Shown: positions 1,361 to 44,380, counted from the stretch's first letter. The stretch: DNA of 64,000 bases from Candidatus Omnitrophota bacterium (GCA_030650425.1 JAUSED010000003.1:7903-71902), one strand, 5' to 3'. Program-made: numbers and translations. The notes: generated by a model from the sequence alone, not told the origin.

Positions 1361-1465
1361 CGAAACTGTTTCCAATCCGTGAAGGAAACTGTTTCCAAGT
1401 CAATCGGGAAACTGTTTCCGCTTTAGGTCGGAAACAGTTTCCCGATTAGAATGGAAACAGTTTCT
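1361..1465. repeat. REP array 1: five units of the 13-nt palindrome GGAAAC-N-GTTTCC, starting at 1361, 1384, 1407, 1430 and 1453.
   Basis: Read directly: cgaaactgtttcc / ggaaactgtttcc x2 / ggaaacagtttcc / ggaaacagtttct, with an exact 23-nt period. Linkers are aatccgtgaa, aagtcaatcg, gctttaggtc and cgattagaat. Confidence 0.9.
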
Positions 1466-1514
1466 ATTCAATTAATTTATTGAATACTAAAATTTATCTG
1501 CTAAAATATAAACT

Positions 1515-2225
1515 ATGGATATGAAAATGCGGGTCACATTTTTAATCCTCTTTTTACTTTTGTTTTGTTCCTCAATAGCGCAAGCAGCGGGCACGATTAC
1601 TTTACGCCTGATGGCGGTAAACCCGGCGGATTCGGAACAGACGGTCCCGGTGAAAGTTTACCTGCCGATGGAAGTAAAGCCCGAAGATATTATTTATAAA
1701 GGTGACCTCGGAGTCGCTTACGACGCCCAGCAGGGAAATTATTATGTTTTCGGCGAATACCAGCTTCAGCCTAAAGAGACCCTTGAAAAAGAAATAGAGA
1801 TCAAGGATGTCTGGGTGATTGATTCGACCCAGATAGGCTTGACCCGGCAGGAAGCAAAAGAGACGCTTGAGCAATTCAAGAAGACAAATTATGTCGAGAG
1901 GGCTAACCTTCTCTACGCCGGGATAGATAAGAAACTCAAAGAAGTTGAAGAGATGCAGGATATGTCTTCGGCCAGCCCGAGTTACAAAATATCCAATTAC
2001 CGCAACGCCTTAAGTTTATTGAATTCAGCGAAAGCCGACCTGCTGGCGGCCAAGACCCTGCTCTCGGAAGTGGCGCCTAAAGGGCTTGCTGGGCTTACTT
2101 GGAAGATTATCCTGTTTATTATTATTTTTCTTGGCGTGCTTGGTTTTGGTTTCTTTTTTATCTGGCAGCGCCAGATGAAGATGGAAGCGGAGCAGCAAAA
2201 AGACCAGCAGCCGCCGCAGGAATAA
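1515..2225 (+). CDS. Hypothetical secreted or membrane-anchored protein with an N-terminal signal peptide and a C-terminal TM helix.
   Basis: Hydrophobic N-terminus MRVTFLILFLLLFCSSIAQA, and C-terminal WKIILFIIIFLGVLGFGFFFIW. The true start may be ATG 1521 or 1527. Confidence 0.55.
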   Translation: MDMKMRVTFLILFLLLFCSSIAQAAGTITLRLMAVNPADSEQTVPVKVYLPMEVKPEDIIYKGDLGVAYDAQQGNYYVFGEYQLQPKETLEKEIEIKDVWVIDSTQIGLTRQEAKETLEQFKKTNYVERANLLYAGIDKKLKEVEEMQDMSSASPSYKISNYRNALSLLNSAKADLLAAKTLLSEVAPKGLAGLTWKIILFIIIFLGVLGFGFFFIWQRQMKMEAEQQKDQQPPQE

Positions 2226-2232
2226 TTTAGAG

Positions 2233-2276
2233 AGGGACGGTTCTATGCTCAACGGTTTAAAATAATAGAACCGTCC
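2233..2276 (+). terminator. Stem-loop (agggacggttctat ... atagaaccgtcc) following the stop of the 1515..2225 gene.
   Basis: 12-bp inverted repeat with an 18-nt loop, followed by T-rich sequence (ttattgtt). Confidence 0.4.
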
Positions 2277-2284
2277 TTATTGTT

Positions 2285-3070
2285 ATGACAAAACTTAAAT
2301 TAATTTTTTCATTTTTATTTCTTAGCTTATTCATATTCGCTTCGGCCCGGGCGGAAGTGATCAGTTCCTTCTGGCGGACGGAAAAATCCCAGCACTTTAT
2401 CGTTTATTATCAGCAGGCCAATCCCACTTTTGTCAGCGAGCTGATCAATAAGGCCGAGGATTATTATAACGGCATAATGGAAGAGCTGGGTTACCGCAGG
2501 TTTGATTTTTGGAGCTGGGATAACCGCGCCAAAATTTACCTTTATGATAATGCCGACGATTTCCATAAGGAAACGCAGCGCGAGGGTTGGACCGGGGCAA
2601 TAGTTTCCGTCCCGAACAGGACCATTCAAAGTTACGTGGGCCAGAGCGGTTTTTTTGATTCCCTGCTTCCCCATGAAATGACCCATATCATCTTTCGGGA
2701 GTTCATCGGTAAGCAGATCGCGCTTCCTCTCTGGATTGATGAGGGCGTTGCCTGCTCTCAAGAGAAGAGCAGCCTCCTGGCGCGTATGCGCATAGCCACG
2801 GAGTTGGTTACCCAAGGCCAATACCTGACTCTTGATGAGCTTTCGAAAGTGAGCAAATTAGACGACAAAATAACTCCCCGCGTTTTTTATTCAGAGGCAG
2901 CCTCAATCATCGTTTTCCTGATCCAAAAAGAGGGCAAGACAGGGTTTCTGGATTTTAGCCGGGCCCTGCGCGACGGGACAGATTGGAAAAAAGCGCTATT
3001 GAAGACGTATAATTTCTCCAGCCTCCAAGAGATGGAAGAGAAGTGGAAGGAGATGCTATGCAAGATGTAA
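2285..3070 (+). CDS. Secreted zinc-metallopeptidase-like protein (HExxH gluzincin-type motif).
   Basis: Signal peptide, motif PHEMTHIIF with a downstream IDEG glutamate. Resembles the peptidase MA superfamily. Confidence 0.5.
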   Translation: MTKLKLIFSFLFLSLFIFASARAEVISSFWRTEKSQHFIVYYQQANPTFVSELINKAEDYYNGIMEELGYRRFDFWSWDNRAKIYLYDNADDFHKETQREGWTGAIVSVPNRTIQSYVGQSGFFDSLLPHEMTHIIFREFIGKQIALPLWIDEGVACSQEKSSLLARMRIATELVTQGQYLTLDELSKVSKLDDKITPRVFYSEAASIIVFLIQKEGKTGFLDFSRALRDGTDWKKALLKTYNFSSLQEMEEKWKEMLCKM

Positions 3071-3933
3071 ATATTCTGGTTTTTGAAGAAGATGCCCAAG
3101 CAGCAAAAACAATCGAGGCTGTTTTGAAATCGGCAGGTTACCATGTCTGGTTAGCCTCAAGCCCCGCTGAAGCGCTTACTTCATTGCGCTCCAATGTTTT
3201 TCCCGCGGCGATTGCCGAGGTGCATTCGGCTAAAATGAATGGCACCCATTTTACGCAAGAAGTGCATAAAATATCCGCGGGGACGAATGTCTTGGTGATC
3301 ACGCTCTATTCTTTTATTAATTCAGCCATTGAAGCAATGGAAGCCGGAGCCTATGCCTATATTACCAAACCCTTCAACAGTTCAGAGATCCGTATCGTGG
3401 TTGAGCGGGCGGTGGAGAGGTATTTCCTGCTTTCGACCAGCGATGAAAAGGACTATTTTGTGGATTTGGCCGTGCGCGACGGCCTGACCGGTCTTTTTAA
3501 CCGCCGTTATTTCAATGAGTTAATCAATATGGAAATTAACCGTTTAAAAAGAGCGCCGAGTTCACTATCCCTACTAATGCTTGACATCGATAATTTTAAA
3601 ATCTATAATGATACGCAAGGGCATCCGGCGGGCGATGAATTACTCAAGAAATGCGCCAAGGTCTTCAAGAATTCCGTGCGCGCGGTGGATATAATTTGCC
3701 GCTATGGAGGGGAAGAGTTTATTATTATGCTTCCTCAGACAGATAAACCGGGAGCGCAGATTATCGCCGAGCGCCTGCGTATGCAGGCAGAACTTTTCTT
3801 ACCGACGACGATCAGCGTGGGAATTGCCACGCTTCCGCAAGACGCGCAGAGTGTTGAGGACTTGATTCAAAAGGCGGATGATGCTCTTTATCAGGCTAAA
3901 AAAAGCGGAAAAAATAAGTGGTGTGCGGCATAA
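3058..3933 (+). CDS. Response-regulator receiver fused to a GGDEF (diguanylate cyclase) domain. The receiver appears atypical.
   Basis: GGDEF signature RYGGEEFIIMLP. The receiver has K (YITKPF) and T/S positions but EE in place of the acidic DD pair, and Glu (AIAEVH) where the phospho-Asp is expected. Start moved to ATG 3058, which has an upstream GGAGA RBS. Confidence 0.8.
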   Translation: MQDVNILVFEEDAQAAKTIEAVLKSAGYHVWLASSPAEALTSLRSNVFPAAIAEVHSAKMNGTHFTQEVHKISAGTNVLVITLYSFINSAIEAMEAGAYAYITKPFNSSEIRIVVERAVERYFLLSTSDEKDYFVDLAVRDGLTGLFNRRYFNELINMEINRLKRAPSSLSLLMLDIDNFKIYNDTQGHPAGDELLKKCAKVFKNSVRAVDIICRYGGEEFIIMLPQTDKPGAQIIAERLRMQAELFLPTTISVGIATLPQDAQSVEDLIQKADDALYQAKKSGKNKWCAA

Positions 3934-4158
3934 ATGCAGTTATCCATACTTGATCCTAAAAAAGCCATCTGGCAGGGGATGAGTAAAGAAGTTAAATTGC
4001 CGACTGCCGACGGAGAAATGTGCGTGCTTGATTTCCACCAGTCTTTCGTGGTCAGGTTAGCCAGAGGCAGTATAATTTTTTCGGAGACGCGTATACCAAT
4101 AAAGGACGGTATTGCTTTTATGCGCTCAAACAGTTTGACTGTTTTCGCGCAGACGTAA
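3934..4158 (+). CDS. atpC: F-type ATP synthase epsilon subunit, N-terminal beta-sandwich domain only.
   Basis: Pattern L.I..P...IW.G....V.LPT.DGE..VL..H.....L..G.I.F matches the epsilon N-domain. At 74 aa it lacks the C-terminal helical hairpin. Confidence 0.6.
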   Translation: MQLSILDPKKAIWQGMSKEVKLPTADGEMCVLDFHQSFVVRLARGSIIFSETRIPIKDGIAFMRSNSLTVFAQT

Positions 4159-4167
4159 AATTAATCT

Positions 4168-4380
4168 ATGTCCACATTCGCATTAGCGCTGGTGATGATT
4201 CTAAGTACCGCCGGGCCTGCCGCGGTGATTGCCTTTGTAGGATATTCTGCGGTTAAATCAATAGCGCGTAACCCCTCCGCTTCCTCAAAAATATTCATCG
4301 TTATGATTCTGGCTTTTATTTTTTCAGAAGCAATCGCGATTTTAGCGCTTCTGATTTTATATAATCTTTTCGCCAAATAG
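4168..4380 (+). CDS. atpE: ATP synthase c subunit (proteolipid).
   Basis: Two-helix hairpin with a conserved loop (VKSIARNPSAS) and a carboxylate in helix 2 (FIFSEAIAILAL). Confidence 0.75.
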   Translation: MSTFALALVMILSTAGPAAVIAFVGYSAVKSIARNPSASSKIFIVMILAFIFSEAIAILALLILYNLFAK

Positions 4381-4393
4381 GAGCTCGGGTCTT

Positions 4394-5107
4394 ATGCTCA
4401 TCCAGCTTTTAGTCATCCAAGTAGTCACATTCATCGGTATTATCTTCTTAATGCGCTTTCTTTTCTCCCGGCATCTTAAAGTTGCCCTAGAGAGGCTGAA
4501 TACTTTACACGAGGAGAATCTGGCTAAAGAGGAAGAGCTTAATGAAGAGCTTAAGCGCGCCAAGGAAGAAAGCCATGCGCAAATAGAGAAGGGCAAGGAA
4601 GAAGCGGAGCTTATTGTTGAAGAGGCCAAGAAAGACGCGTTGCGGCTGCGTTCAGCGCTTGAGGAAGAAGCTAAGGCGCAGGCAGATAAAATTGTGGCTG
4701 GCGGGAAGATTGACGCAGAGAAACTGAAGGAAAAGTGCTCGCAAGATATACAGGCTCAAAGCGTCGAACTGGCTTCAAGGATGATTTCCGAGCTGTTGAT
4801 TGAGGCGGACAAAATCGCCCTGCAGTATCAATTTACCAATGAAATAATCGAAGAGATTGCCCGCCTGCCGAAAGAGCAGTTTAATGTCCAATCCAAAGAT
4901 ATAAAAGTCACCTCGAGTTTCCCGCTTCTAGATAGGCAGAGGGAAGAGCTTAAGAAGGCCTTGACTGAAAAGCTGGGGAGCGCGCCTGAAATAAAAGAGC
5001 AAATAGATGCCCGGCTTATCGGCGGCCTGATCGTCGAAATAGGCGGTATGGTTATCGACGGAACGTTAAGAAATAAACTGCAAAGAATCATTCCTTATTT
5101 GAAATAA
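4394..5107 (+). CDS. ATP synthase b subunit fused to a delta/OSCP-like C-terminal segment.
   Basis: N-terminal TM helix, long charged coiled coil, and a C-terminus (ARLIGGLIVEIGGMVIDGTLRNKLQRI) matching the delta-subunit C-terminal motif. Confidence 0.6.
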   Translation: MLIQLLVIQVVTFIGIIFLMRFLFSRHLKVALERLNTLHEENLAKEEELNEELKRAKEESHAQIEKGKEEAELIVEEAKKDALRLRSALEEEAKAQADKIVAGGKIDAEKLKEKCSQDIQAQSVELASRMISELLIEADKIALQYQFTNEIIEEIARLPKEQFNVQSKDIKVTSSFPLLDRQREELKKALTEKLGSAPEIKEQIDARLIGGLIVEIGGMVIDGTLRNKLQRIIPYLK

Positions 5108-5137
5108 GAAGCAAAAGAGACATACCGCAATTGTAGT

Positions 5138-5242
5138 AGGGGACACTTTCCAACCTCTGCAGAAAGGGACACTTTCCGTCAGGGCCTAACTAGAACTTCA
5201 AAAGGAAAATGTCCCTTTCTGACGCAAAGGAAAGTGTCCCCT
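5138..5242. repeat. Family-2 palindromic element as a nested double copy. Layout is A(5138-5151) A(5165-5177) loop A'(5204-5216) A'(5229-5242), with A = GGGGACACTTTCC.
   Basis: Read directly. The same stems and loop (gtcagggcctaactagaacttcaaaa) recur at 34171-34225 and, with the loop inverted, at 59843-59898. Confidence 0.85.
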
Positions 5243-5254
5243 AGCATTGAGAAA

Positions 5255-6715
5255 ATGAAAATTAACGCATTAGACATCCGGGAAGTCGGCAGAATAGAAG
5301 AGCTTAAGCAGGGAATTGTCAAGATCAGCGGCCTGCCTAATTGTTCGTACGGAGAAGTGATTGAATTTGAGAACGGGCTAAAAGGGATGATCGTTGAATT
5401 TAACCCTGAATGCGCTTACGGTATTATTTTCGGTGATGAACACAAGGTTAAGGTTGGGGATGTGGTCTCCAGCCGCGGAGGCCTGCTCAATGTTCCGGTG
5501 GGAAGCGCCTTTGTCGGCAGGGTAGTCGATTCTCTGGCCCGGCCAATAGACGGAAAAGGGCATATTGAAGCGGCGGATACTTATTCGGTTTTTCGCGAGG
5601 CAGCCGGAGTAATGGAGAGGGAGCCGATCAGCGAAACCCTGCATACAGGGATAAAGATTATCGATATGCTGATCCCCTTGGGTAAGGGCCAGCGCGAACT
5701 TGTCGTCGGAGACCGCCAGATTGGCAAGACTTCTATCGGCCTCGATACGATCATCAATCAAAAAGGTAAAAATGTCATTTGCATATATTGCTGGATAGGA
5801 GGGAGCAGCGCCGCTTTTAATAAAATCATCCAAACCCTGCGCCAGCACGGAGCAATGGATTATTTTCTGGGCGTTTCGGCGCCGGCAGGCGCCTCCACCT
5901 CCGAACAATACATCTGCCCTTATACCGCCGCTGCCCTCGGCGAATATTTTATGTATAACGGCAAGGATGTTTTGATTATTTTTGACGATTTAACCAAACA
6001 TAGCTGGGTTTATCGTCAGATGTCTTTGCTCCTTGAGCGCGCCCCGGGAAGAGAGGCGTACCCCGGAGATATATTCTTTCTGCATTCGCAGCTAATGGAA
6101 CGCGCGGGCAGGTTAAAGAAAGAATTCGGCGGAGGGTCAATGACCTTTTTTCCTTTAGCCGAGACACTACAAGGCGATATTACCGGATACATTTGTTCCA
6201 ATATCGTCTCGATGACTGACGGCCAAATTTATTTAAACACCGGGCTTTTCCAAGAAGGCTTTAAACCGGCGATCGATCTGGAGTTATCCGTCTCGCGTAT
6301 CGGAAGCAAGGTGCAGTGTCCGGCAATCCGTCAATTAAGCGCGGGGCTGCGCTACGAATACGTGCGCTTCCGTTCGTTGCTCAGGCTTACCCGCTTAAGG
6401 ACTAAGCTTAGCCCGGAGGCAGCTGAACAGCTGCAAAGGGGCAAGGTCCTCTATGAGCTTTTAATTCAGGAGAATAGCGTCCCTCTTTCTCAGGCGGAAG
6501 AGATCGCTCTTTTTTACGCTTTTTACCAGAAGATACTGGAGGCTCTCAGCATAGAGCAGGTGAAATATTTTAAAATTAACTTTTTTAATTATTTGTCTAA
6601 TCATTACGGGGAATTAGTCAATGAGCTTAACACAAAAGGCGAACTGGGAGACGAGATTAAGGCGCAATTAGATAAAGCAATCAAGGATTTCTTCCGCAGC
6701 GCGAAGATAGGGTAG
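5255..6715 (+). CDS. atpA: F1 ATP synthase alpha subunit.
   Basis: Walker A GDRQIGKTSIGLDTI, ERAPGREAYPGDIFFLHSQLMERA, and C-terminal LRYEYVRFRSL-like region. The track start at GTG 5234 lies inside the repeat element; ATG 5255 is preferred. Confidence 0.9.
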   Translation: MKINALDIREVGRIEELKQGIVKISGLPNCSYGEVIEFENGLKGMIVEFNPECAYGIIFGDEHKVKVGDVVSSRGGLLNVPVGSAFVGRVVDSLARPIDGKGHIEAADTYSVFREAAGVMEREPISETLHTGIKIIDMLIPLGKGQRELVVGDRQIGKTSIGLDTIINQKGKNVICIYCWIGGSSAAFNKIIQTLRQHGAMDYFLGVSAPAGASTSEQYICPYTAAALGEYFMYNGKDVLIIFDDLTKHSWVYRQMSLLLERAPGREAYPGDIFFLHSQLMERAGRLKKEFGGGSMTFFPLAETLQGDITGYICSNIVSMTDGQIYLNTGLFQEGFKPAIDLELSVSRIGSKVQCPAIRQLSAGLRYEYVRFRSLLRLTRLRTKLSPEAAEQLQRGKVLYELLIQENSVPLSQAEEIALFYAFYQKILEALSIEQVKYFKINFFNYLSNHYGELVNELNTKGELGDEIKAQLDKAIKDFFRSAKIG

Positions 6716-6720
6716 AATAA

Positions 6721-7560: not shown

Positions 7561-10678
<3,118 letters not shown>

Positions 10679-10679
10679 T

Positions 10680-10784
10680 GGAAACTGTTTCCGGTCCAAA
10701 GCGGAAACAGTTTCCGTTTCAATCGGGAAACAGTTTCCCGATTAGCTTGGAAACAGTTTCCTTCACGAATTGGAAACAGTTTCC
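10680..10784. repeat. REP array 3: five units starting at 10680, 10703, 10726, 10749 and 10772. It begins 2 nt after the pilB/gspE stop.
   Basis: 23-nt phasing. Unit 3 plus its arms forms the 26-nt palindrome tcaatcGGGAAACAGTTTCCcgatta. Confidence 0.9.
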
Positions 10785-10811
10785 ACTATGCTATGGCGGG
10801 GAGAATAGATT

Positions 10812-12047: not shown

Positions 12048-12053
12048 ATAATA

Positions 12054-13954: not shown

Positions 13955-13966
13955 CTAACCGCTAAC

Positions 13967-14041
13967 CGAAACTGTTTCCAATTTGTGAGGGAAACTGTTT
14001 CCATTCCAAAGCGGAAACTGTTTCCGAGTCAATCGGGAAAC
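13967..14041. repeat. REP array 4: three units at 13967, 13990 and 14013, plus a degenerate fourth at 14036.
   Basis: 23-nt phasing. Linkers are aatttgtgag, attccaaagc and gagtcaatcg. Confidence 0.85.
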
Positions 14042-14061
14042 GGGGCATAAGGAGGAGATCG

Positions 14062-14457: not shown

Positions 14458-14458
14458 C

Positions 14459-16779: not shown

Positions 16780-18399
16780 ATGATTGAACGATTACGAATT
16801 CCCATGCCACTGCGAAAATCGCCTAAAGTTACTGCTGGAGGCAATTTTCTTGATATTGAAGTTATTTGTTGGGTTATGCTCTTGCTAACTTTGTCAGTGG
16901 TGTTGATCGTGAGGCTGAGGCTGTTGGGGATTCCCCTTGAGCGGGATGAGGGAGAATACGCCTATCTCGGCCAGCTTTTATTGCAGGGCGTGCCTCCTTA
17001 TAAGCTCGCTTATAGTATGAAGCTTCCCGGCGCGTGCGCTGTTTACGCTTTGTTGATGGCGGTATTCGGGGAGACGATCAAGGGCATTCATTTAGGGTTC
17101 TTAATTATTAATTTCGCTTCAATTGCCTTAATATTTTTTATAGCTAAAAGATTATCCGGCACTCTAGCCGGAATTATTTCCGCAGCTGCTTACGCTGTTT
17201 TATCTGTTAGTCAATCAGTCCTCGGAGTCCAGGCGCATGCCACGCATTTAATAGTCTTGGCAGCCCTCTGCGGATCAATCTTACTTTTAAAAGCAGTTGA
17301 AAATGATCGAAAGAGTTTAATTTTCTTGAGCGGTTTATTTTTTGGGCTGGCCTTTCTGATGAAACAACAGGGAATATTTTTTATCCCCTTCGGCATCTTT
17401 TATCTTTCCTGGGCTTGCAAGAAACGATCTGTTTTAGCGGCTAATTTGATGGTTTATAGCTTGGGAGCGGCGTTACCTTTTGCACTAACCTGTTTAGTTC
17501 TTTTTTTTGCCGGCGTTTTCGATAAATTTTGGTTTTGGACGTTTCAATATGCATCCGGGTATTCTTCCGGCGCTCACGTTTATTTGGCGTTTCAAATTTT
17601 CAAAGCCCAATTGCTGGGGGCGATCAAACCATTTAAGCCGGTATGGTATATCGCGGCCGCGGGTTCTTTGTGCCTTTTTATCGACGCTAAAGTTAGAAAG
17701 AATATCTTTTTTGTCGCGGCTCTGTTGATTAGTTCTTTTCTGGCTCTCTGCCCGGGATTTATCTTCCGTGAGCATTATTTTGTGATGATATTGCCGGTAG
17801 TTTCTATATTATGCGGTATGTGCGTAAATTCGGCTGTTGAATTTATCAAGAATCGAAAATATCCGGCAGCTTTTCAATCCTTTCCGGTGATCATCTTTAC
17901 CGTTATTTTGGCGCTTTCTGTTTTTCAACAGAGGGATTACTTTTTTACAGCAACTCCGGAGAGGGTATCGCGGAAGGCTTACGCTGAAAATCCTTTTATC
18001 GAGTCCATCAGTATAGGAAATTACCTAAAAGCGCATTCATCTCCGGAGGATACGATCGCGGTATTGGGCTCAGAGCCCCAGATATATTTTTACGCGCGCA
18101 GGCGTTCGGCAACCGGCTATATTTATGCCTATCCTTTAATGGAAAACCAGCCTTATGCCTTAAAGATGCAGGAGGAGATGATTAGAGAAATCGAATTTCA
18201 AAAACCCCTCTACTTAGTTTTTGTCAAGGTTAACACTTCTTGGCTGCGGCACGGAGGTTCAGAAAATTTTATCTTCAGATGGGCCCAAAATTATATTACC
18301 GAGCATTACGATATTGCCGGGGCAACCTTTATTTCTAAGCAACCTTTTTCCTCTGTATTGGTCTATAAGCGAAAGGCGGAAACAGTTTCCAATTTGTGA
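16780..18399 (+). CDS. Polytopic membrane glycosyltransferase of the GT39/GT83 family (PMT/ArnT-like).
   Basis: About 12 TM helices in the N-terminal two-thirds and a soluble C-terminal domain. The last six codons and the stop (ETVSNL*) are supplied by REP array 5. Confidence 0.55.
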   Translation: MIERLRIPMPLRKSPKVTAGGNFLDIEVICWVMLLLTLSVVLIVRLRLLGIPLERDEGEYAYLGQLLLQGVPPYKLAYSMKLPGACAVYALLMAVFGETIKGIHLGFLIINFASIALIFFIAKRLSGTLAGIISAAAYAVLSVSQSVLGVQAHATHLIVLAALCGSILLLKAVENDRKSLIFLSGLFFGLAFLMKQQGIFFIPFGIFYLSWACKKRSVLAANLMVYSLGAALPFALTCLVLFFAGVFDKFWFWTFQYASGYSSGAHVYLAFQIFKAQLLGAIKPFKPVWYIAAAGSLCLFIDAKVRKNIFFVAALLISSFLALCPGFIFREHYFVMILPVVSILCGMCVNSAVEFIKNRKYPAAFQSFPVIIFTVILALSVFQQRDYFFTATPERVSRKAYAENPFIESISIGNYLKAHSSPEDTIAVLGSEPQIYFYARRRSATGYIYAYPLMENQPYALKMQEEMIREIEFQKPLYLVFVKVNTSWLRHGGSENFIFRWAQNYITEHYDIAGATFISKQPFSSVLVYKRKAETVSNL

Positions 18400-18459
18400 A
18401 GGAAACTGTTTCCATTCCGTGAAGGAAACTGTTTCCAGCCCAATTGGGAAACTGTCCCC
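18378..18459. repeat. REP array 5: three units at 18378, 18401 and 18424, plus a degenerate unit GGAAACTGTCCCC at 18447-18459 abutting the RAYT stop.
   Basis: 23-nt phasing. Linkers are aatttgtgaa, attccgtgaa and agcccaattg. Confidence 0.9.
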
Positions 18460-18941
18460 TAGAGCACGAGTTTATCTAGTAAAGCAAAATTATTTAAATA
18501 GGCTAGATTCCTTTCTGGATAACTGCTGAATTCATACTCTTTCATATTTTTGACTAAATTAGCCCGGATTGGATTCTGTTCTACATAAGCAATACAGTCT
18601 ATTAGGTATTGATCTCTAGCTATTACCTTTGCCTTGAATCTACCCTGCCACAAATGGCCTACCTTATTATATTTTTTGTTATAGTAAGCAGTGTATGATC
18701 GATGTAGGCCTTGCATAAAACTAGGAAGTTTACTCGGGTTTTTAGGCTCACCTATAATATGAATATGGTTTGGCATTAGGCAGTAACCGTACAGAAGCAG
18801 GGAGTGTTTTCTTTTGTAAAGCCTTAATTGGTGAAGATAAAATTCAAAATCTTCTTTACTTTTGAATATTAGTTGTTTTTGATTGCCTCTCGCATAGATA
18901 TGATAGCAGGCATTATTGATAAGTAATCGTGTTTTAGCCAT
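18459..18941 (-). CDS. REP-associated tyrosine transposase (RAYT, IS200/IS605-like Y1 HUH family).
   Basis: HUH motif CLMPNHIHII, catalytic Tyr region IAYVEQNPIRANLV, and GHLWQGRFK. At about 160 aa it is the typical size. Start set at ATG 18941, which has an AAGGAGG RBS 5 nt upstream on the minus strand. Confidence 0.8.
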   Translation of the reverse strand: MAKTRLLINNACYHIYARGNQKQLIFKSKEDFEFYLHQLRLYKRKHSLLLYGYCLMPNHIHIIGEPKNPSKLPSFMQGLHRSYTAYYNKKYNKVGHLWQGRFKAKVIARDQYLIDCIAYVEQNPIRANLVKNMKEYEFSSYPERNLAYLNNFALLDKLVL

Positions 18942-18954: not shown

Positions 18955-19036
18955 AAGTCCACTTTCCCGATTGGCTCGGAAACAGTTTCCGCTTTGAGAT
19001 GGAAACAGTTTCCCGATTAGGATGGAAACTGTTTCC
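18955..19036. repeat. REP array 6: a degenerate unit at 18955 (gtccactttccc), then units at 18978, 19001 and 19024.
   Basis: 23-nt phasing. Linkers are cgattggctc, gctttgagat and cgattaggat. Confidence 0.9.
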
Positions 19037-20566: not shown

Positions 20567-20641
20567 ATTTACCTCCTCTAAGCTAATAGACGTAAGAAGG
20601 ATGTAAATCTAACGAAAATAATTGGATAGTTTTGACAAAAA

Positions 20642-20672
20642 AGGTGACAGCCACAAAATACGTGACTGTCAC
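20642..20672. repeat. Family-3 palindromic element ggtgacagCcac-aaaatac-gtgactgtcacc, flanked by an A-run and a T-run.
   Basis: Same architecture as the 54756-54796 element inside comEC. It sits between divergent gene starts. Confidence 0.6.
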
Positions 20673-20695
20673 CTTTTTCCGGAGATGAGAAAAGG

Positions 20696-27398: not shown

Positions 27399-27475
27399 CG
27401 AAACTGTTTCCATCTCAATCGGGAAACAGTTTCCGAGCCAATCGGGAAACTGTTTCCGAGCCAATCGGGAAAGTG
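27399..27475. repeat. REP array 8: units at 27399, 27422 and 27445, plus a degenerate unit at 27468, between the KS alpha and KS beta genes.
   Basis: 23-nt phasing. Linkers are atctcaatcg, gagccaatcg and gagccaatcg. Confidence 0.9.
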
Positions 27476-27496
27476 GGCATAGGAGAGGGAGGCTGT

Positions 27497-31367: not shown

Positions 31368-31386
31368 TAGATTCTAGGAGGCCATT

Positions 31387-31827: not shown

Positions 31828-31842
31828 TTCTAGGAGGTTAAG

Positions 31843-32619: not shown

Positions 32620-32659
32620 CAAAATATTAAATACAGGTAGAGCAAGAAAGGGGATAAAG

Positions 32660-33268: not shown

Positions 33269-34197
33269 TCATTGACGCGCATAGCCATTGGCTGCCGGAA
33301 GAAATAATTTCCAATGCCCATTTTTTTTCCAAAAGCTGGGGTGAGATCGAGCATCAGCTTGAGGCAATGGATGAAGCAGGGATTGATCAAGCCGTTCTCT
33401 CATATCCTACTTCCGACGCCCATCTTAAGTTAGGGAGTATTTCACTGGTTGCCCGGATTTTTAATGATAATGTAGCCAAAATCCTCAAAAAATATCCGGA
33501 CAGATTTATTGGCGCGGCAGTCCTGCCAGTGGACAACGGGAAGGATATGCAAGAGGAGGCTAAGCGGGCTATAGAAAAACTAGGGTTTAAGGCCTTCTCT
33601 TTGGCGAGCAGCTACAATGCTGTATATCTGGACGATCAGATCTTCTTACCTATATATAAGCTGGCGCAGGATGAGCATATACCGATTTTTGTGCATTCTC
33701 AGATTGTTAAGCCCATTGGCATCGAGCGCGTAAACGACCCGCTGCTTACCCCGGTAATCGAATATGTTTTTGATATGACGGTGTGTATTGGTAAGCTGCT
33801 GATGTCGGATATTTTACGCGATTATAAAACGAAATTTATCTTTGCATCTTTTGGCGGGGTAATTCCGTTTATAGCGCATAGGTTTGACGCGACCTACCAG
33901 ATGCTGCGGGGGATTAATTTTGTCAAAGACCTGCAAGCAATGCCTACAGAATTATTGAAGTATATTTATGTGGATACCAGCGGAGATAAGACCAAGGCGA
34001 ATTTTCAGGCAGCCTTGGAGTTACTCGGGCCAAAACATATTCTCTGGGGAAGCGATTGGCCAGCCAAAAAAGATATCGCCGCAGGAATGCAGGCGGTTAA
34101 AAATTTAGATATATCTAACGAAGACAAGCATAATATTTTAGGCGGTAATTTAGAACAGTTCTTGAACAGTAGGGGACATTTTCCGTCAGGGCTCTAA
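33265..34197 (+). CDS. Amidohydrolase-2 family enzyme (ACMSD-type metal-dependent decarboxylase/hydrolase).
   Basis: N-terminal MIIDAHSHWLPEE and a TIM-barrel hydrolase pattern. The last ~8 codons and the stop are encoded within a family-2 repeat element. Confidence 0.65.
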   Translation: MIIDAHSHWLPEEIISNAHFFSKSWGEIEHQLEAMDEAGIDQAVLSYPTSDAHLKLGSISLVARIFNDNVAKILKKYPDRFIGAAVLPVDNGKDMQEEAKRAIEKLGFKAFSLASSYNAVYLDDQIFLPIYKLAQDEHIPIFVHSQIVKPIGIERVNDPLLTPVIEYVFDMTVCIGKLLMSDILRDYKTKFIFASFGGVIPFIAHRFDATYQMLRGINFVKDLQAMPTELLKYIYVDTSGDKTKANFQAALELLGPKHILWGSDWPAKKDIAAGMQAVKNLDISNEDKHNILGGNLEQFLNSRGHFPSGL

Positions 34198-34225
34198 GAG
34201 GAGCCTCAAAAGGAAAGTGTCCTCT
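34171..34225. repeat. Family-2 palindromic element copy B: AGGGGACATTTTCC - loop - GGAAAGTGTCCTCT.
   Basis: Diverged copy. The loop is gtcagggctctaagaggagcctcaaaa versus gtcagggcctaactagaacttcaaaa at 5178. Confidence 0.75.
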
Positions 34226-34261
34226 ACTGACTCAAACGGAAATTCATTAAGAGAAAACATT

Positions 34262-34636: not shown

Positions 34637-34649
34637 ATAGGGGGTAAAG

Positions 34650-34979: not shown

Positions 34980-34997
34980 AAATAAGGAGAAATAAAT

Positions 34998-37668: not shown

Positions 37669-37678
37669 GAGGTAGGAA

Positions 37679-38476: not shown

Positions 38477-38489
38477 GGAGTTCAGGGGT

Positions 38490-39509
38490 ATGCGCGTAGC
38501 GATGTATTACAATAACAGGGATGTTAGGATCGAAGACCTGCCTGAGCCTAAGATCAGCGACACCGAGTTATTGGTTAAGGTAAAGGCAAGCGGAATCTGC
38601 GGGAGCGATGTTTTGGAATGGTACAGGGTAAAAAAAGCGCCGCTTGTCCTCGGCCATGAGATCGCCGGAGAAATTGCTAAAATAGGCAAAGATGTAAAAG
38701 GCTTTCAAATCGGTGACCGGGTTTTTGTTTCGCACCATGTGCCCTGCAACACCTGTTACTATTGCCTAAATGGGAATCATACTGTTTGCGAAACTTTGCA
38801 TACGACCAATTATTATCCCGGGGGGTTTGCGGAATATATCAGAGTTCCGTCAATTAATGTTGAGCGGGGAGTATTTTTACTGCCGGATGAAATATCTTTT
38901 GAAGAGGGGACTTTTGTCGAACCGCTCGCCTGCGTTTTGCGCGGGCAGAGGATGATCAACATTAAACCCGGGCAAAGCATACTTATTTTAGGAGGAGGCA
39001 TTTCCGGATTATTGCACCTTTTGGCTGCGCGCGCTCAGGGAGCCGGCCGGATCATCGTAACGGATATCAGCGAATACCGCCTGAAAATGGCTAAAAGCCT
39101 GGGGGCTGATAGTGTGATTAATGCCAAAGAGGATGTTACGGTAATGCTGCGTAAGGCTAACCATAACCGTCTTAGTGATCAGGTGATTATTTGTACCGGA
39201 GCAACTTCGGCATTTATGCAATCTTTGCAATGCGTTGAGCGGGCAGGGACTATTTTGTGTTTCGCCGCAACTTTGCCGGGAGTAACTTTACCGGTTCCGG
39301 TGAATGATTTCTGGCGCAATAGCGTCAAGATTATGCATTCTTACGGCGCTGCGCCCGTAGATATAACGCAGGCAATAGAATTGTTACGCGCCAAAGTTGT
39401 GGAGGTCAAGAAGTTAATCACCCACTCTTTAGAGCTAGCGGAAGCAGCTAAAGGCTTTCAGCTGGCGGCCGAAGCAAAAGAATGCGTTAAGGTAATCCTT
39501 AAGCCATGA
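38490..39509 (+). CDS. Zinc-dependent medium-chain alcohol dehydrogenase.
   Basis: Catalytic Zn ligands GICGSDV and GHEIAGEI, structural-Zn cysteines CNTCYYCLNGNHTVC, and Rossmann motif LGGGISG. Confidence 0.9.
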   Translation: MRVAMYYNNRDVRIEDLPEPKISDTELLVKVKASGICGSDVLEWYRVKKAPLVLGHEIAGEIAKIGKDVKGFQIGDRVFVSHHVPCNTCYYCLNGNHTVCETLHTTNYYPGGFAEYIRVPSINVERGVFLLPDEISFEEGTFVEPLACVLRGQRMINIKPGQSILILGGGISGLLHLLAARAQGAGRIIVTDISEYRLKMAKSLGADSVINAKEDVTVMLRKANHNRLSDQVIICTGATSAFMQSLQCVERAGTILCFAATLPGVTLPVPVNDFWRNSVKIMHSYGAAPVDITQAIELLRAKVVEVKKLITHSLELAEAAKGFQLAAEAKECVKVILKP

Positions 39510-40987
39510 GTACGGATCTATTTATCAACGGTGAATTTAAAGAGGCAAAAGAAAAGCAGAATATCATTAATCCCTCTACCGGGAAGGCGATTGCGCAGGC
39601 AGGGGTTGCTTCTTTAAAAGATGTAGATTCAGCGATTGCCGGCGCCAGGGCCGCCTTTGATCAAGGAGAGTGGCCGCGATTATCATTAGCCGAACGCAAG
39701 GATTTTATTTCCAAGATTAGCCAAGGTATTTTAGATAACGCCGGAGAGCTGGCGGAGTTAGAGAGCCTAAACACCGGTAAGCCGATTAAAGAAACAACTT
39801 TTATGGATATTCCCTCGGCCGCGAAAACCTTTGAGTATGCCGCTAATAACTTTGAAAGATTCTTGAGCAGCGAGGAGTTGAATGTTTCAGGCAAAGCAAA
39901 GGCAGTTTTAAGGCGCGAGCCCGTCGGGGTCGTAGTTTTAATTGTCCCCTGGAATTATCCGCTTTTAATCGCCTGCTGGAAATTGGCGTCAGCTTTAGCC
40001 GCGGGAAATACGGTAATCCTTAAGCCCTCCAGCCTTACCCCGTTAAGCGCGCTTAAATTAGCCGGCATCGCGCATACTGCCGGTATTCCCGCCGGAGTGG
40101 TGAATGTGATCAATGGAAGCGGAGATAAAATCGGCGCAGCGCTTTGCGCGGATAGAAGAATAGATATGCTTTCTTTTACCGGTAGTAATGAGGTGGGGAG
40201 GAAAATTCTTGAATACTCTTCGCAGAATATAAAGAAATCGATTATGGAGTTGGGCGGAAAAAGCGCCAGTTTAATTTTTAACGATGCTGATTTAGATACC
40301 GCGGTGAACAGCTCGCTAGTATCAATATTTCTAAATCAGGGCCAGATGTGCACAGCGATGTCGCGCATCTTTGTTCAAGACAGCCTATATGATAAATTTG
40401 TAGTTAGTTTTGTAGAAAAGGCCAGGACCATAAAACTCGGTCCCGCGGATAGCCACGAAACTCAGATGGGCCCACTAATTAGCGAAAATCAGCGTAAAAG
40501 AGTGATTGCCTTTGTCGAAAAGGCTAAGGCCGAAGGCGCGCAGGTTTTGTGCGGCGGAAAAATCCCGCAAGATCCCGCGCTCAAAAATGGGTTTTTCTTT
40601 GAACCTACGGTGATCATTGATGTTAAGCCGCAAATGACTATATCCAAAGAAGAGGTTTTCGGCCCTGTTGTTACGATTAGCAGGTTTTCTAATAGCGATG
40701 AGGCAGTGAAGTTAGCTAACGCAAGCGATTTTGGATTAGCAGCCTGTATTTGGAGTAAAGATATAAATTTTGCTGAAAGAGTAGCCTGCCAGCTTAATAG
40801 CGGAACAGTCTGGATTAATACTTATGGCATGTTTTATAATCAGCTTCCTTACGGTGGATTCAAGCAGAGTGGTTTTGGTAAAGAATTAGGGAGGGAGGGG
40901 TTTCTCGAATATACCCGTCTTAAAAATATAATCATCGATCAGTCAGCCGATAGCAGGCCATTGGTCAATTACTGGTACGGTTTCTAA
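39506..40987 (+). CDS. NAD(P)-dependent aldehyde dehydrogenase.
   Basis: Catalytic Cys in LNQGQMCTAMSR, and Glu in IMELGGKSA. Confidence 0.9.
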   Translation: MSTDLFINGEFKEAKEKQNIINPSTGKAIAQAGVASLKDVDSAIAGARAAFDQGEWPRLSLAERKDFISKISQGILDNAGELAELESLNTGKPIKETTFMDIPSAAKTFEYAANNFERFLSSEELNVSGKAKAVLRREPVGVVVLIVPWNYPLLIACWKLASALAAGNTVILKPSSLTPLSALKLAGIAHTAGIPAGVVNVINGSGDKIGAALCADRRIDMLSFTGSNEVGRKILEYSSQNIKKSIMELGGKSASLIFNDADLDTAVNSSLVSIFLNQGQMCTAMSRIFVQDSLYDKFVVSFVEKARTIKLGPADSHETQMGPLISENQRKRVIAFVEKAKAEGAQVLCGGKIPQDPALKNGFFFEPTVIIDVKPQMTISKEEVFGPVVTISRFSNSDEAVKLANASDFGLAACIWSKDINFAERVACQLNSGTVWINTYGMFYNQLPYGGFKQSGFGKELGREGFLEYTRLKNIIIDQSADSRPLVNYWYGF

Positions 40988-40991
40988 AATA

Positions 40992-41711
40992 ATGAGGAAA
41001 TACATTTTATCTGTCTGGTTTTGGATAGGCAGCGCAATATTGACGATAATTTTATTTTTTGTCGTGCTGCTTCTTGCGGTCATTCTCCTTCCTTTTGATA
41101 AAAAAAGAAAAGTTGCTCACGCGCAATGTTTCTGGTGGTCGGATTGCGTAATCAAACTGAATCCCTATTGGAGATTGCGTGTTGAGGGCTTAGAGAATAT
41201 CGATCATCACAAGACATATGTGGTGATTGCCAATCATCAGAGTATGGCCGATATAGCTGTGCTTTATCAGACGCGCATGCAATTTAAGTGGGTCTCCAAA
41301 AAAAGCCTTTTCAATGTTCCTTTTATCGGGTGGTGCCTTACGCTCACTAAGCATATCAAGTTGGAGCGGGGAGAATTTTCCAGTATTAAAAAAGTATACC
41401 GCGAGGCGGCGGAATGGCTGAGAAAGGATATATCGGTATTATTTTTTCCGGAGGGGACACGCAGCGATACCGGCCAGATGAATGTCTTTCAAAACGGCGC
41501 CTTTAAGTTAGCGATAAAAGAAAAGAGGCCTATACTTCCTATCCGCATCCAGGGAACGCGCGAGGCCATTCCTAAAGGCAGCTGGGTTTTTAACGCGAAA
41601 GTTTTGGTGACCATTACTGTCCTCCCTGCTGTTGAAACAGGTTCATTAAATCCGGCTGATTTTGCCAGCCTTAGGGATACGGTTTTTAAGAGAATTAGTG
41701 GTATAATATAG
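40992..41711 (+). CDS. plsC: 1-acyl-sn-glycerol-3-phosphate acyltransferase (lysophospholipid acyltransferase).
   Basis: N-terminal TM segment, acyltransferase motifs HQSMADI (HxxxxD) and FPEGTRS. Confidence 0.85.
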   Translation: MRKYILSVWFWIGSAILTIILFFVVLLLAVILLPFDKKRKVAHAQCFWWSDCVIKLNPYWRLRVEGLENIDHHKTYVVIANHQSMADIAVLYQTRMQFKWVSKKSLFNVPFIGWCLTLTKHIKLERGEFSSIKKVYREAAEWLRKDISVLFFPEGTRSDTGQMNVFQNGAFKLAIKEKRPILPIRIQGTREAIPKGSWVFNAKVLVTITVLPAVETGSLNPADFASLRDTVFKRISGII

Positions 41712-41724
41712 AAAAGGGGCCAGA

Positions 41725-42567
41725 ATGGATACTTATATACTTTTATTCCAGTGCAGGGACCAAAGAGGGATTGTAGCCAAGATTTCTGATTTTATTTTCA
41801 AACATGGCGGGAACATTGTTACCGCTGATCAATACTCCACTGATTTCCAGAAAGGTTATTTCTTTATCAGGCTGGAATTTGTAGTAGGCACTAAACCCGG
41901 GATAAAAGCCGGCCTGGAAAGAGGTTTAGGCCTGATTGCCAAGGGCTTTAGCGCCAAGTTTTCGCTTCATGATAAAAATAAACCCCTGCGCATGGGGGTA
42001 TTGGTTTCCAAGCCCAGCCATTGCCTGGCCGAAATATTGTATTTATGGCAGGAGAAAGAACTGCGTTTGGAAATACCTTTTGTAATCAGTAATTTCGCGG
42101 GGCACGCTGAACTCGTCAAGCAATACAAGATCCCTTTTTATTTTATTCCGGCGGAAAGCAAGGACAGGAAAGAAGCTGAGTTATTGAAGTTAGTCTCAGA
42201 GAAAACCGACTTTCTGGTTTTAGCCCGTTATATGCTCCTGCTTTCCCGAAAATTCCTTGGCGCTTACGGTAAAGAGATCCTCAATATCCATCACGGATTC
42301 CTGCCTTCGTTTAAAGGGCGCAATCCTTATCGGCAGGCGCTTTCCAGCGGAGTGAAGATAATCGGAGCAACCAGCCATTTTGTGACTGAGAGACTTGACG
42401 AAGGCCCGATGATCGCCCAGGAGGTAGAGAGTATTTCGCATAAAGATAGCTTAGCTGACCTGACGCGCAAAGGGAAGAATTTGGAAAAGAAGGCCCTAAT
42501 TGACGCGATTTGCGCCTACGTGGATTACCGCGTGATTAAATTCGATAATAAAACCATAGTTTTTTAG
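41725..42567 (+). CDS. purU: Formyltetrahydrofolate deformylase (ACT domain plus formyltransferase).
   Basis: ACT domain ILLFQCRDQRGIVAKISDFI, formyltransferase motifs LNIHHGFLPSFKG and SHFVTERLDEGP. Confidence 0.85.
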   Translation: MDTYILLFQCRDQRGIVAKISDFIFKHGGNIVTADQYSTDFQKGYFFIRLEFVVGTKPGIKAGLERGLGLIAKGFSAKFSLHDKNKPLRMGVLVSKPSHCLAEILYLWQEKELRLEIPFVISNFAGHAELVKQYKIPFYFIPAESKDRKEAELLKLVSEKTDFLVLARYMLLLSRKFLGAYGKEILNIHHGFLPSFKGRNPYRQALSSGVKIIGATSHFVTERLDEGPMIAQEVESISHKDSLADLTRKGKNLEKKALIDAICAYVDYRVIKFDNKTIVF

Positions 42568-42584
42568 CTAGAGGGATTAACCCG

Positions 42585-43664
42585 ATGAGGAAAATTAATA
42601 AGATTCTATTGTGGATAATTGCCGTTTTTTTTACCCTTTTTATTATTGCCAATATCGCGGTTTCCTTATTTGCCAAACAAATTATAGTTAGGCAAATCGA
42701 AGAGAACCTTAAAGTTCCCGTAACCCTCGGCAGCATAAACGTCGGCCTGCCTCTTTCCATAAAACTAAGTAAACTTAGCGTCGGGGATTTATTTAAAGCC
42801 GATGAAGTTTCTGTTTCTCCTAACATCCTTGGATTTTTCGCGGGTAAGCTTGTGCTTAGTTCGGTGGACTTAGTTAATCCGTTGGTCAATCTTGAACGGT
42901 CAGCCGACGGAAGGCTCAACCTACCCAAATTAGATAATAATAAAGGAAAGCCACCCGCGATTTATCTGACTAGCCTGAGCGTAAGAAACGGAAAGCTTAT
43001 TTTTATCGATAGAAAGATAGATCCTTCCGGTTATAAAATTATTCTGGCAAATTTAAACAGCCACATTTCTAAAGTCATGCTTCCTCCGGCTTCGCTTAAG
43101 GTTAATTTTAAGCTGTCGGCGGATTTGTTGGCTCCAGATAGCCGGAAATTGGGAAGTACAGCGTTATCCGGCTGGCTGGATTTCGGGCCTAAGGATATGG
43201 ATGGGAACCTCATCATCAAAGACTTGGACCTGACTTATTTTTCTCCATACTACGGGAATTTTATCTCCGATAAGAAACTCCTTTCAGCCAAGCTCAATAT
43301 CAATACTAACCTTAAGGCCGAAAATAATAACCTAAAAATCTTGACTGATTTCAGGCTCTCTAATTTAACATATAGCCAAGAGGCACCTGTTGAAGGAACG
43401 CTGCCGGAGATAAATTTCGCGAAGAATGCCTTGGAGTTTTTTACCGATTCCAAAGGTAACCTGAATCTGGAATTTGAGATTAATACCCGATTGGACCATC
43501 CCAATGTCACTGTCGAGCAGCTTAAGAAGGTGATCTTAAAGGCGGCCAGCAAAAATCTCTCTAACCAATCTCCGGAAGAGCTGATGAAGAAAGTTAATGC
43601 TAATATCGACCAATTCAAGGCGATAGGCAAGACTTTGAAGAATATATTTAAAGGGAAAGAGTAA
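42585..43664 (+). CDS. Hypothetical membrane-anchored protein (AsmA/DUF748-like?).
   Basis: N-terminal TM helix followed by a soluble beta-rich region. The family call is weak. Confidence 0.4.
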   Translation: MRKINKILLWIIAVFFTLFIIANIAVSLFAKQIIVRQIEENLKVPVTLGSINVGLPLSIKLSKLSVGDLFKADEVSVSPNILGFFAGKLVLSSVDLVNPLVNLERSADGRLNLPKLDNNKGKPPAIYLTSLSVRNGKLIFIDRKIDPSGYKIILANLNSHISKVMLPPASLKVNFKLSADLLAPDSRKLGSTALSGWLDFGPKDMDGNLIIKDLDLTYFSPYYGNFISDKKLLSAKLNINTNLKAENNNLKILTDFRLSNLTYSQEAPVEGTLPEINFAKNALEFFTDSKGNLNLEFEINTRLDHPNVTVEQLKKVILKAASKNLSNQSPEELMKKVNANIDQFKAIGKTLKNIFKGKE

Positions 43665-44320
43665 TGCCAGCGAATAAATCTAAAAGCCTGCAAGATATCG
43701 AAGAAAAAATGGGATCTCTGGACGTAAATTCTTTACGTTATCATGTGCTGGAGAGCGCCAGGAATTTTAAAACCTCCTGGATTGAATTAGGACGCTCGCT
43801 TTATTCCGTCTGGAAAGATAAGATGTATAAGGAATGGGGTTTTGGGACGTTTGACGCCTACACCGCCAAAGAAATCGGGATCAAGAAGCCCACGGCGATG
43901 AAGCTACTGCGCTCATATTATTTTCTGGAAAAAGAAGAACCGGCATATTTGAAGGATGGTTATACTGAATCAGCTGATACGGCCAAGCTTCCCAGCTACG
44001 AAGCCGTGGATTTATTGCGCAAGGCAAAAGATAAGAAAACTCTGGATTCCCAAGATTATTCAAAATTGAAAAAGGAAATTTTTGAGGATGGTAAGGATGT
44101 GCAAACTGTAAAGCGGGATTTGACTTCTCTAGTCAGGCAGAGAGAAGAACTTGAACCTGAAGAGGCGTATAAAAAAAGACGGACAGCCATCTTAAGGAGA
44201 TTTATCGGCAGCCTTAAGGCCTTAAAGCAGGAGGCAGAAGTATCCAAATTGCTTCCGGCCCAGCTGATCAACGAAGCGCAGGAATTGATCCGCAAGATAG
44301 AGGAGCAAATTAAATTGTGA
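43664..44320 (+). CDS. Hypothetical protein.
   Basis: 218-aa ORF with no recognised motif. Its stop lies 1 nt before REP array 9. Confidence 0.45.
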   Translation: MPANKSKSLQDIEEKMGSLDVNSLRYHVLESARNFKTSWIELGRSLYSVWKDKMYKEWGFGTFDAYTAKEIGIKKPTAMKLLRSYYFLEKEEPAYLKDGYTESADTAKLPSYEAVDLLRKAKDKKTLDSQDYSKLKKEIFEDGKDVQTVKRDLTSLVRQREELEPEEAYKKRRTAILRRFIGSLKALKQEAEVSKLLPAQLINEAQELIRKIEEQIKL

Positions 44321-44321
44321 G

Positions 44322-44380
44322 GGAAACTGTTTCCAACTTGTGAAGGAAACTGTTTCCGGATCAATCGGGAAACAGTTTCC
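44322..44380. repeat. REP array 9: three units at 44322, 44345 and 44368.
   Basis: 23-nt phasing. Linkers are aacttgtgaa and ggatcaatcg. This is the last family-1 array in the window. Confidence 0.9.

Follow-up and report, generated by a model that had tools for sequence, protein, structure and literature searches.

We analysed a 64-kb stretch of one genome of Candidatus Omnitrophota (hereafter the window), a member of an uncultivated phylum of ultra-small bacteria. Within the window nine arrays of a 13-nt palindrome, GGAAACWGTTTCC, are found between genes, and two of these arrays flank, in inverted orientation, a gene for a small Y1-type protein with an HUH motif. Here we describe the arrays and this gene, and weigh the case for reading them as repetitive extragenic palindromic (REP) elements and their REP-associated tyrosine transposase (RAYT). 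Copy counts of the repeat and of the RAYT gene refer to the window alone.

Phased palindrome arrays between genes

The arrays and the RAYT gene are as follows, where F and R denote the forward and the reverse class of the linker between two palindromes (cores), and ORF an open reading frame.

1361–1465 (+): array 1; five cores with linkers F F R R and centre bases T T T A A, the first core beginning CGAAAC and the last ending GTTTCT
7563–7667 (+): array 2, between atpG and atpD; five cores, F F R R
10680–10784 (+): array 3, between genes for a type II secretion/type IV pilus ATPase (T2SS/T4P, pilB-like) and a T2SSF protein (pilC-like); five cores, F F R R
13967–14048 (+): array 4; three forward cores and the terminal unit GGAAACGGGGCAT (14036–14048), then AAGGAGG and the start of a pseudopilin gene
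18378–18459 (+): array 5, the 3′ flank of the RAYT gene; three cores and the terminal unit GGAAACTGTCCCC (18447–18459)
18459–18941 (−): the RAYT (TnpA-REP) gene; 160 aa (MAKTRLL...), its ATG behind AAAGGAGG, with HUH = H59-I-H61 and Tyr119
18955–19036 (−): array 6, the 5′ flank of the RAYT gene, between comM (Mg-chelatase-like) and RAYT; three forward cores and the terminal unit GGAAAGTGGACTT, then AAAAGGAGG and the RAYT start codon
22590–22694 (+): array 7, between a YkuD L,D-transpeptidase gene and accA; five cores, F F R R
27399–27480 (+): array 8, between two fabF-like genes; three forward cores and the terminal unit GGAAAGTGGGCAT (27468–27480)
44312–44380 (+): array 9; a c-type linker that supplies the TGA of ORF 43664–44320 and three cores (F F), ending 7 nt before the start of an AMP-binding gene

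We found 30 exact copies of the 13-mer in the window and none in 100 dinucleotide-preserving shuffles of it (0 expected). When up to two mismatches are allowed there are 39 core matches, 36 of them inside the nine arrays (30 exact and 36 near-exact, against 0–1.4 expected); three further terminal units, degenerate in sequence (14036, 27468 and 18955), also stand in phase, which makes 39 phased 13-mers in all. This agrees with a preliminary description of this DNA, which had reported about 38 units in nine arrays. Its exact 23-nt phase was likewise recovered by Tandem Repeats Finder in every array, and its array starts are correct save for one, which is 22590 and not 22591. By crude ORF calls the coding share of the window is 94%, and 32 of 35 cores fall outside any ORF so called. 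Collectively, the exact copies set against none in the shuffles, the exact period and the mostly extragenic position indicate that the observation is real and far from chance.

The intergenic placement claimed earlier is thus borne out, with a distance from the upstream stop codon to the array start of 1–16 nt in place of the 1–2 nt that had been called frequent. The stop codon directly before an array is often TAA or TAG, the first unit then reading (A)AC-CGAAAC, and CGAAACTGTTTCC opens several arrays. The TGA stops of ORFs 16780–18399 and 43664–44320 are supplied by the repeat linkers themselves, the former by the first linker of array 5. With nine arrays, the starts after stop codons are compatible with either a target preference or selection against genic insertion. 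The non-coding DNA of the window comes to about 3.7 kb, roughly a quarter of which is taken up by the nine arrays (about 810 nt) and a second family described below (about 245 nt). No core lies beyond position 44380 in a scan that allowed up to two mismatches, in keeping with the earlier remark that the core family is missing from the last 20 kb, and a 7.5-kb contig that is identical to the window over 4,153 nt contains none in the 3.3 kb past one window edge.

Linkers of the window and of 41 other loci fall almost entirely (76 of 78) into a forward class or its reverse complement, which substantiates the small set of reused linkers noticed before. Forward linkers end in YR followed by ATCG, AAGC, TGAA/TGAG or TTCG just before the next core. 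Both A and T occur at the core centre, as had been reported, and this base tracks the orientation of the linker, T with forward and A with reverse. Once linkers are oriented and pooled, all ten positions are constrained, with the consensus A-A-Y-Y-C-A-A-T-C-G (AAYYCAATCG followed by the core). Because the whole linker is conserved, the linkers are not spacers and the repeat is one oriented 23-mer set head to tail, made of a 6-nt stretch (RRNYYR), a 4-nt tail (ATCG, AAGC, TGAA or TTCG) and the palindrome GGAAAC-T-GTTTCC. The three subtypes of longer palindrome that the preliminary description had proposed did not hold, as two flanks are present at four pivot cores only and match at just one of them, the core at 10726 in array 3, which is the sole symmetric extended palindrome.

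The arrays take one of two forms. In the first, a forward block is followed by a reverse block (1361, 7563, 10680 and 22590), and in the second a forward block is closed by a distinct terminal unit, GGAAAGTGKSC.. (13967, 27399 and 18378, and 18955 on the minus strand). Array 9 has forward linkers alone, without a terminal unit, and its inverted-repeat arms begin at 44312. Array orientation seemed to match transcription in the window, where each of the three arrays whose terminal unit adjoins a downstream gene start points with its gene, one of them inverted within an operon on the minus strand; a tie between orientation and transcription fails in other genomes, for which the gene calls are crude.

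Next we considered the folding of the arrays as single-stranded DNA. The predicted energies range from −17 to −38 kcal/mol (z −3 to −10.8), with the forward/reverse arrays at −30 to −38 kcal/mol (z −6.6 to −10.8) and array 1 at −38.1 kcal/mol (z −10.8). Adjacent units do pair in these folds, neighbouring T-centre and A-centre cores forming 13-bp stems with the linker as the loop, whereas a single 13-nt core alone forms merely a 5-bp stem with a 3-nt loop.

The RAYT gene and the arrays that flank it

The protein encoded at 18459–18941 matches the Pfam family Y1_Tnp (PF01797, E 4.6e-11). Its sole sequence match in the PDB is 4ER8_A, with H59-I-H61 aligned to H-M-H and Y119 to Y115, and its identity to Escherichia coli TnpA-REP is only about 16%. 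An AlphaFold2 model of the protein (pLDDT 74) has 4er8_A as its top Foldseek match (E 4.5e-8, TM 0.67), ahead of the IS608, ISDra2 and IS200 transposases. H59, H61 and Y119 are invariant across 30 homologues. The window contains one copy of this gene, which is also the sole transposase-like gene found in it.

Arrays 5 and 6 (18378 and 18955) flank the RAYT gene as inverted repeats, with their terminal units toward the gene; the TAG stop of RAYT abuts and overlaps the terminal unit of array 5 and doubles as its tag. The same inverted layout, with terminal units facing RAYT and the same core, was found at seven further loci (handles L026, L037, L003, L042, L043, L048 and L050). The order comM, array, RAYT is shared by seven genomes, those of the window, L026, L037, L043, L044, L048 and L050 (the arrays of L044 being degenerate), with the RAYT protein 66–81% identical. 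In L042 and L046 the neighbours of RAYT differ from comM, and in L052 no RAYT adjoins comM and 21.4 kb hold 0 cores.

We found 431 RAYT homologues at E < 1e-10, and those with an organism label among the 120 matches listed are all Omnitrophota; most homologue clusters lie on a single contig. When metagenomes were scanned with the RAYT alignment, 79 loci were recovered, 70 of them with enough flank to look for an exact inverted word of at least 12 nt common to the upstream and the downstream flank. Such a word is present at 52 of the 70 loci, versus 0 of 70 when a flank is shuffled. Furthermore, the core GGAAACWGTTTCC is present on both RAYT flanks at 8 of the 11 loci whose RAYT is at least 65% identical, versus 1 of the 59 below 65%. 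The more distant RAYTs have other cores (CAGACACTTTCC, TAGGGACGGTTCT, GTAGGGGACGTCC and others), often still beside CAATCG/CGATTG. The core sequence therefore co-varies with the RAYT clade.

Dispersal, empty junctions and a second family

A scan of species-representative genomes with a two-unit pattern returned 41 stretches on many contigs of at least 12 species-level Omnitrophota metagenome-assembled genomes (MAGs). Dispersal over at least a dozen genomes shows that the family is not a local duplication, the alternative that the preliminary description had raised. The label is Candidatus Omnitrophota for 38 of the 41 stretches. The other three (L013, L031 and L041; CAYJRN010000019.1, CAZUQR010000004.1 and CAZUQR010000001.1) come from MAGs labelled Planctomycetia or Planctomycetales, so that either these labels are wrong or the family reaches a neighbouring lineage of the Planctomycetes-Verrucomicrobia-Chlamydiae (PVC) superphylum. 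The same pattern had no match in 2.9 million viral contigs, and a phage origin was rejected on this ground.

Relatives with the same gene order allow filled and empty junctions to be compared. Three syntenic loci (L052, L053 and L054) have an AtpD 87–91% identical to that of the window and no core in 21.4, 6.3 and 20.9 kb, respectively. The gap lengths at the junctions, in nt, are:

atpG–atpD (array 2): window 114; L052 2, L053 0, L054 3
pilB–pilC (array 3): window 133; L052 3, L053 3, L054 91 (unrelated sequence)
ORF 13424–13954/pseudopilin gene (array 4): window 107; L052 11, L053 not covered, L054 63
YkuD–accA (array 7): window 138; L043 2, L044 4, L048 5

Array 1 is also absent from the orthologous junction in L052 and L054, and blastn synteny blocks stop exactly at the arrays. 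No target-site duplication is visible between the filled junctions and the empty ones of L052–L054, L043, L044 and L048. At the position of array 5, the 87%-identical relative L042 has two cores versus three in the window. Taken together, these results demonstrate that the arrays are insertions without target duplication and that their unit number changes. Such filled and empty junctions look like the insertion without target duplication of IS200/IS605-type elements. A miniature inverted-repeat transposable element (MITE) of a DDE transposon was rejected, since the junctions carry no duplication and the only transposase-like gene is of the Y1 type.

Three of the compared regions show further differences. 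At array 3 (window 10785–10811 versus L052 13011–13013) an ancestral Shine-Dalgarno sequence internal to pilB (GGAG before the stop) has decayed to AGAG, and a new GGGGAG is found after the array, ahead of the pilC start. In arrays 4 and 8, too, the terminal-unit end is directly followed by an AGGAGG-like sequence. In L052, positions 8783–9043 hold an 86-aa GIY-YIG ORF between atpA and atpG that is absent from the window and may have entered the ATP synthase operon as a homing-endonuclease-like insertion. In the closest relative, L042 (RAYT 87% identical), a divergently transcribed ORF and not comM lies upstream of the RAYT array (1–454), which points to a rearrangement at the array.

A second family is present at three places in the window:

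5132–5250: nested double hairpin with the arms (GTAG)GGGGACACTTTCC / GGAAAGTGTCCCC(TAG)
34165–34229 (+): hairpin, GTAG-GGGACATTTTCC, a 27-nt spacer and GGAAAGTGTCCT-CTAC
59839–59899 (−): hairpin, GTAG-GGGACACTTTCC ... GGAAAGTGTCCCC, in opposite orientation to the copy at 34165

This element of about 60 nt has the arms GTAG-GGGACACTTTCC and GGAAAGTGTCCCC-TAC round a conserved 27-nt spacer. The copy at 59839 is 86% complementary to that at 34171 and sits in the core-free last 20 kb, and the element at 5132–5250 folds as single-stranded DNA at −30 kcal/mol (z −6.4). We found that the arm of this family is the terminal unit of the 23-nt arrays. The tag of that unit (GGGGACACTTTCC) is degenerate and GTAG-like, reading GTAG three times, CTAG twice, TAAG once and GAAA once in the window, and TTAG, ATAG, CTAG or GAAG in other genomes. 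By inspection, two G-to-A changes separate the terminal GGGGACAGTTTCC from the abundant core GGAAACAGTTTCC, turning two G.T pairs into A-T pairs. Furthermore, a terminal-type unit stands beside a 59%-identical RAYT in L046, which lacks the abundant core. These features suggest that the unit with the GTAG-like tag would be the older REP and the phased 23-nt unit its derivative. In its own right, GGGGACACTTTCC also occurs in head-to-tail runs with a 26-nt period, four copies in L017 (1530–1620, JAQTUD010000026.1) and two in the window (5140 and 5166), which means that phased tandem growth is not confined to the 23-nt unit.

Some features of the window lie apart from these families. A 35-nt perfect-stem palindrome, AAGGTGACAG.CAC..AAT.CGTGACTGTCACCTT, unrelated in sequence to the REP cores, is present in two 91%-identical copies, one at 20641–20675 in the divergent comM/20733 intergenic region with A and T runs on either side, the other at 54758–54792 inside ORF 54343–55761. 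Two in-ORF tandem repeats of 7/14 nt, ACAGAGG/ACAGAAG x4.7 at 52560–52595 and TTTTCTG/TCTGTCC x4 at 56783–56815, have units that are roughly reverse complements of each other. Divergent tRNA genes at 50208–50290 (−) and 50359–50431 (+) are the only Rfam matches in the window at gathering thresholds.

Probable REP elements, their RAYT and the alternatives

The REPtron layout is that of a tnpA-REP gene flanked by inverted REPs (PMC8266576). Here the repeat is palindromic and extragenic, the RAYT is of the expected type and has such repeats as its flanks, and repeat and enzyme co-vary; on these grounds we conclude that the arrays are very probably REP elements and the gene at 18459–18941 (−) their cognate Y1/HUH RAYT, together a REPtron. 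Most likely it is this RAYT, apparently domesticated, that spreads the repeats. The REP/BIME assignment of the preliminary description (BIME, bacterial interspersed mosaic element) gains from the presence in the window of a RAYT gene with two of the nine arrays as its inverted flanks. Its first half stands, as REP with RAYT; its second does not, because the units do not alternate as in a classical BIME and an array (F F R R, or F F F and a terminal unit) contains no more than one change of orientation. A REPIN, that is an inverted pair of REPs with a spacer folding into one hairpin, describes the second family well, the F F R R arrays loosely and the one-armed arrays not at all.

The REP/BIME system of E. 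coli with TnpA-REP (REPtron Ec, RAYT group 2; 4ER8; PMC8266576) likewise has a Y1/HUH gene, single-copy as ours is within the window, flanked by inverted dispersed palindromes. The structure 4ER8, TnpA-REP bound to a REP hairpin, is the best match of our protein in sequence and structure, with HUH and Tyr conserved; sub-classes coexist in both systems (Y, Z1 and Z2 in E. coli; ATCG, AAGC and TGAA tails here), and both form regular multi-unit clusters. However, the REPs of E. coli are about 35 nt long and GTAG-tagged, with a bulged stem and alternating BIMEs, whereas the unit here is 23 nt with a perfect 13-nt palindrome, the abundant units lack GTAG, and they stand head to tail with no more than one inversion per array.

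The group 3 REPtrons and REPINs of Pseudomonas, Stenotrophomonas and Marinomonas (PMC8266576, PMC3116915) also have short perfect palindromes and a RAYT that is vertically inherited, as it probably is here, and their inverted doublets fold into one long hairpin, as do the forward/reverse blocks and the second family (5.1, 34.2 and 59.8 kb) here. Their REPINs consist of two inverted REPs and a spacer, whereas here the arms are phased runs of 2–3 units and many arrays are one-armed. GTAG-1 of Thauera sp. MZ1T and other clustered GTAG families (PMC3733652) share 5-bp stems and mostly tandem clusters with the arrays; those families keep the GTAG tag, and neither strict 23-nt phasing nor a terminal unit is described for them there. 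REP families with a GTAG tag have been described before from the PVC superphylum (PMC3733652).

Several points weigh against the assignment. The four nucleotides beside the core of the abundant units are ATCG, AAGC, TGAA or TTCG and never GTAG, and the 13-nt core is shorter than the palindrome of 20–50 nt usual for REPs (PMC8266576). Head-to-tail REP dimers are rare among described families (PMC3733652). The protein scores 80.3 bits against the NCBIfam equivalog NF047646 (REP_Tyr_transpos), borderline at a cutoff of 80, and the RAYT locus is not perfectly static, as the different upstream gene in L042 attests. The repeat census and the RAYT copy number rest on 64 kb of the genome, and binding, cleavage and the cut site in this system are all matters that we infer by analogy.

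An alternative explanation is that the arrays are cis-regulatory for the host, as operators for a dimeric DNA-binding protein or as intercistronic RNA hairpins for mRNA stability or processing. Although they lie inside the atp, type IV pilus and fab operons, exactly between genes, the same junctions lack arrays in relatives with an AtpD 87–91% identical, and the flanking genes are functionally unrelated. The hairpins are strong and the 23-bp spacing is close to two helical turns, yet the arrays have no T-tract, were not called as intrinsic terminators and matched no known RNA family in Rfam at gathering thresholds (the two tRNAs being the window's only matches). Shine-Dalgarno sequences do follow terminal-unit arrays directly; orientation relative to the flanking genes is nevertheless mixed in other genomes (crude gene calls). 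We consider a primarily regulatory role in the host very improbable, while a secondary, co-opted effect of the arrays on transcripts is possible.

That the arrays are microsatellite-like tandem repeats, spread only by slippage or recombination and next to the Y1 gene by accident, is very unlikely. Slippage would be consistent with the exact period, the self-complementary cores and a unit number that varies between relatives, but it could not bring one and the same 23-nt unit to nine separate junctions found empty in relatives, and the inverted flanks at 52 of 70 RAYT loci, with a core that changes with the RAYT clade, also speak against it.

We give still less credence to the idea that the Y1 gene and its arrays form an autonomous insertion sequence (IS) of the IS200/IS605 type, of which the other arrays would be solo ends or MITE-like deletion derivatives. 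Elements such as IS608 and ISDra2 share with the system described here the Y1 HUH fold, the recognition of hairpins in single-stranded DNA and insertion without target duplication. They are, however, autonomous and multi-copy and often carry tnpB, and IS200/IS605 ends are not inverted repeats, whereas the gene here has inverted-repeat flanks, is single-copy in the window and is syntenic across species, following comM in seven genomes; the RAYT family model and 4ER8 match its product best. Three stretches (L002 7617–7800, L014 5671–5807 and L021 1021–1184) consist of a forward block, a terminal unit, 20–40 nt, a terminal unit and a reverse block, and look like a REPtron from which the RAYT gene has been deleted, an arrangement that speaks for the IS explanation. 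An IS-like ancestry is compatible with REP elements served by a RAYT. Finally, a miniature CRISPR-like system, to which regularly spaced palindromes bear a superficial likeness alone, is next to impossible because the 10-nt linkers between the 13-nt repeats are conserved, reused and in both orientations, whereas CRISPR loci have repeats of 24–48 bp, unique spacers of similar size and usually cas genes, and all nine loci, within 44 kb, lie between housekeeping genes to judge by the ORFs annotated, so that the rejection of CRISPR in the preliminary description was well founded.

Under the REPtron explanation, and following what is known of E. coli TnpA-REP and IS200/IS605 TnpA (PMC8266576), the RAYT would bind the repeats folded as hairpins in single-stranded DNA and would cut at a fixed position by the hairpin, using Tyr119 and an HUH-bound metal. 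The ends would then be rejoined, with units copied or moved into new single-stranded sites without target duplication; the lack of duplication is as expected of HUH Y1 enzymes. Known RAYTs have CT and CA sites, and by analogy the conserved YCA immediately 5′ of the tail is a candidate for the cut and join site. Gain and loss would proceed in 23-nt steps because each unit carries the same cut/join position, and slippage between self-complementary cores may have the same effect, reinforcing these steps. The arrays would exactly fill gene junctions because a compact genome lets only intergenic insertions survive. Transcribed within operons, the array hairpins may affect mRNA stability or translational coupling.

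Classical REPINs propagate as inverted doublets. More tentatively, we propose that spread in the REP lineage described here may have taken another mode, with a complete 23-nt module (cut site, tail and perfect 13-nt palindrome) added singly by the RAYT at existing units and at new junctions, which would yield phased arrays of CRISPR-like appearance, and with the abundant core arising from the tagged terminal unit. If this is true, the ladder of identical units would be a direct read-out of the cut/join position of a TnpA-REP.

Work on REP–RAYT systems has dealt almost exclusively with Proteobacteria, and the way in which REPs disseminate is still an open question (PMC8266576). Our literature search turned up neither a paper that has the 13-mer or terminal unit in any relevant setting nor one that connects Omnitrophota with intergenic repeats. 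In practical terms, such arrays can mislead callers of CRISPR loci and of gene starts. One ORF list runs atpD into array 2, while the atpD start at 7675 matches an identical database protein (P0121). They are also likely breakpoints in MAG assemblies. For the organism, the arrays account for gaps in otherwise gap-free operons of ATP synthase, the type IV pilus and fatty-acid synthesis. For the family, the REPtron layout is shared across these RAYTs in the Omnitrophota, with cores that change with the RAYT clade and one clade that has a strictly phased, head-to-tail unit.

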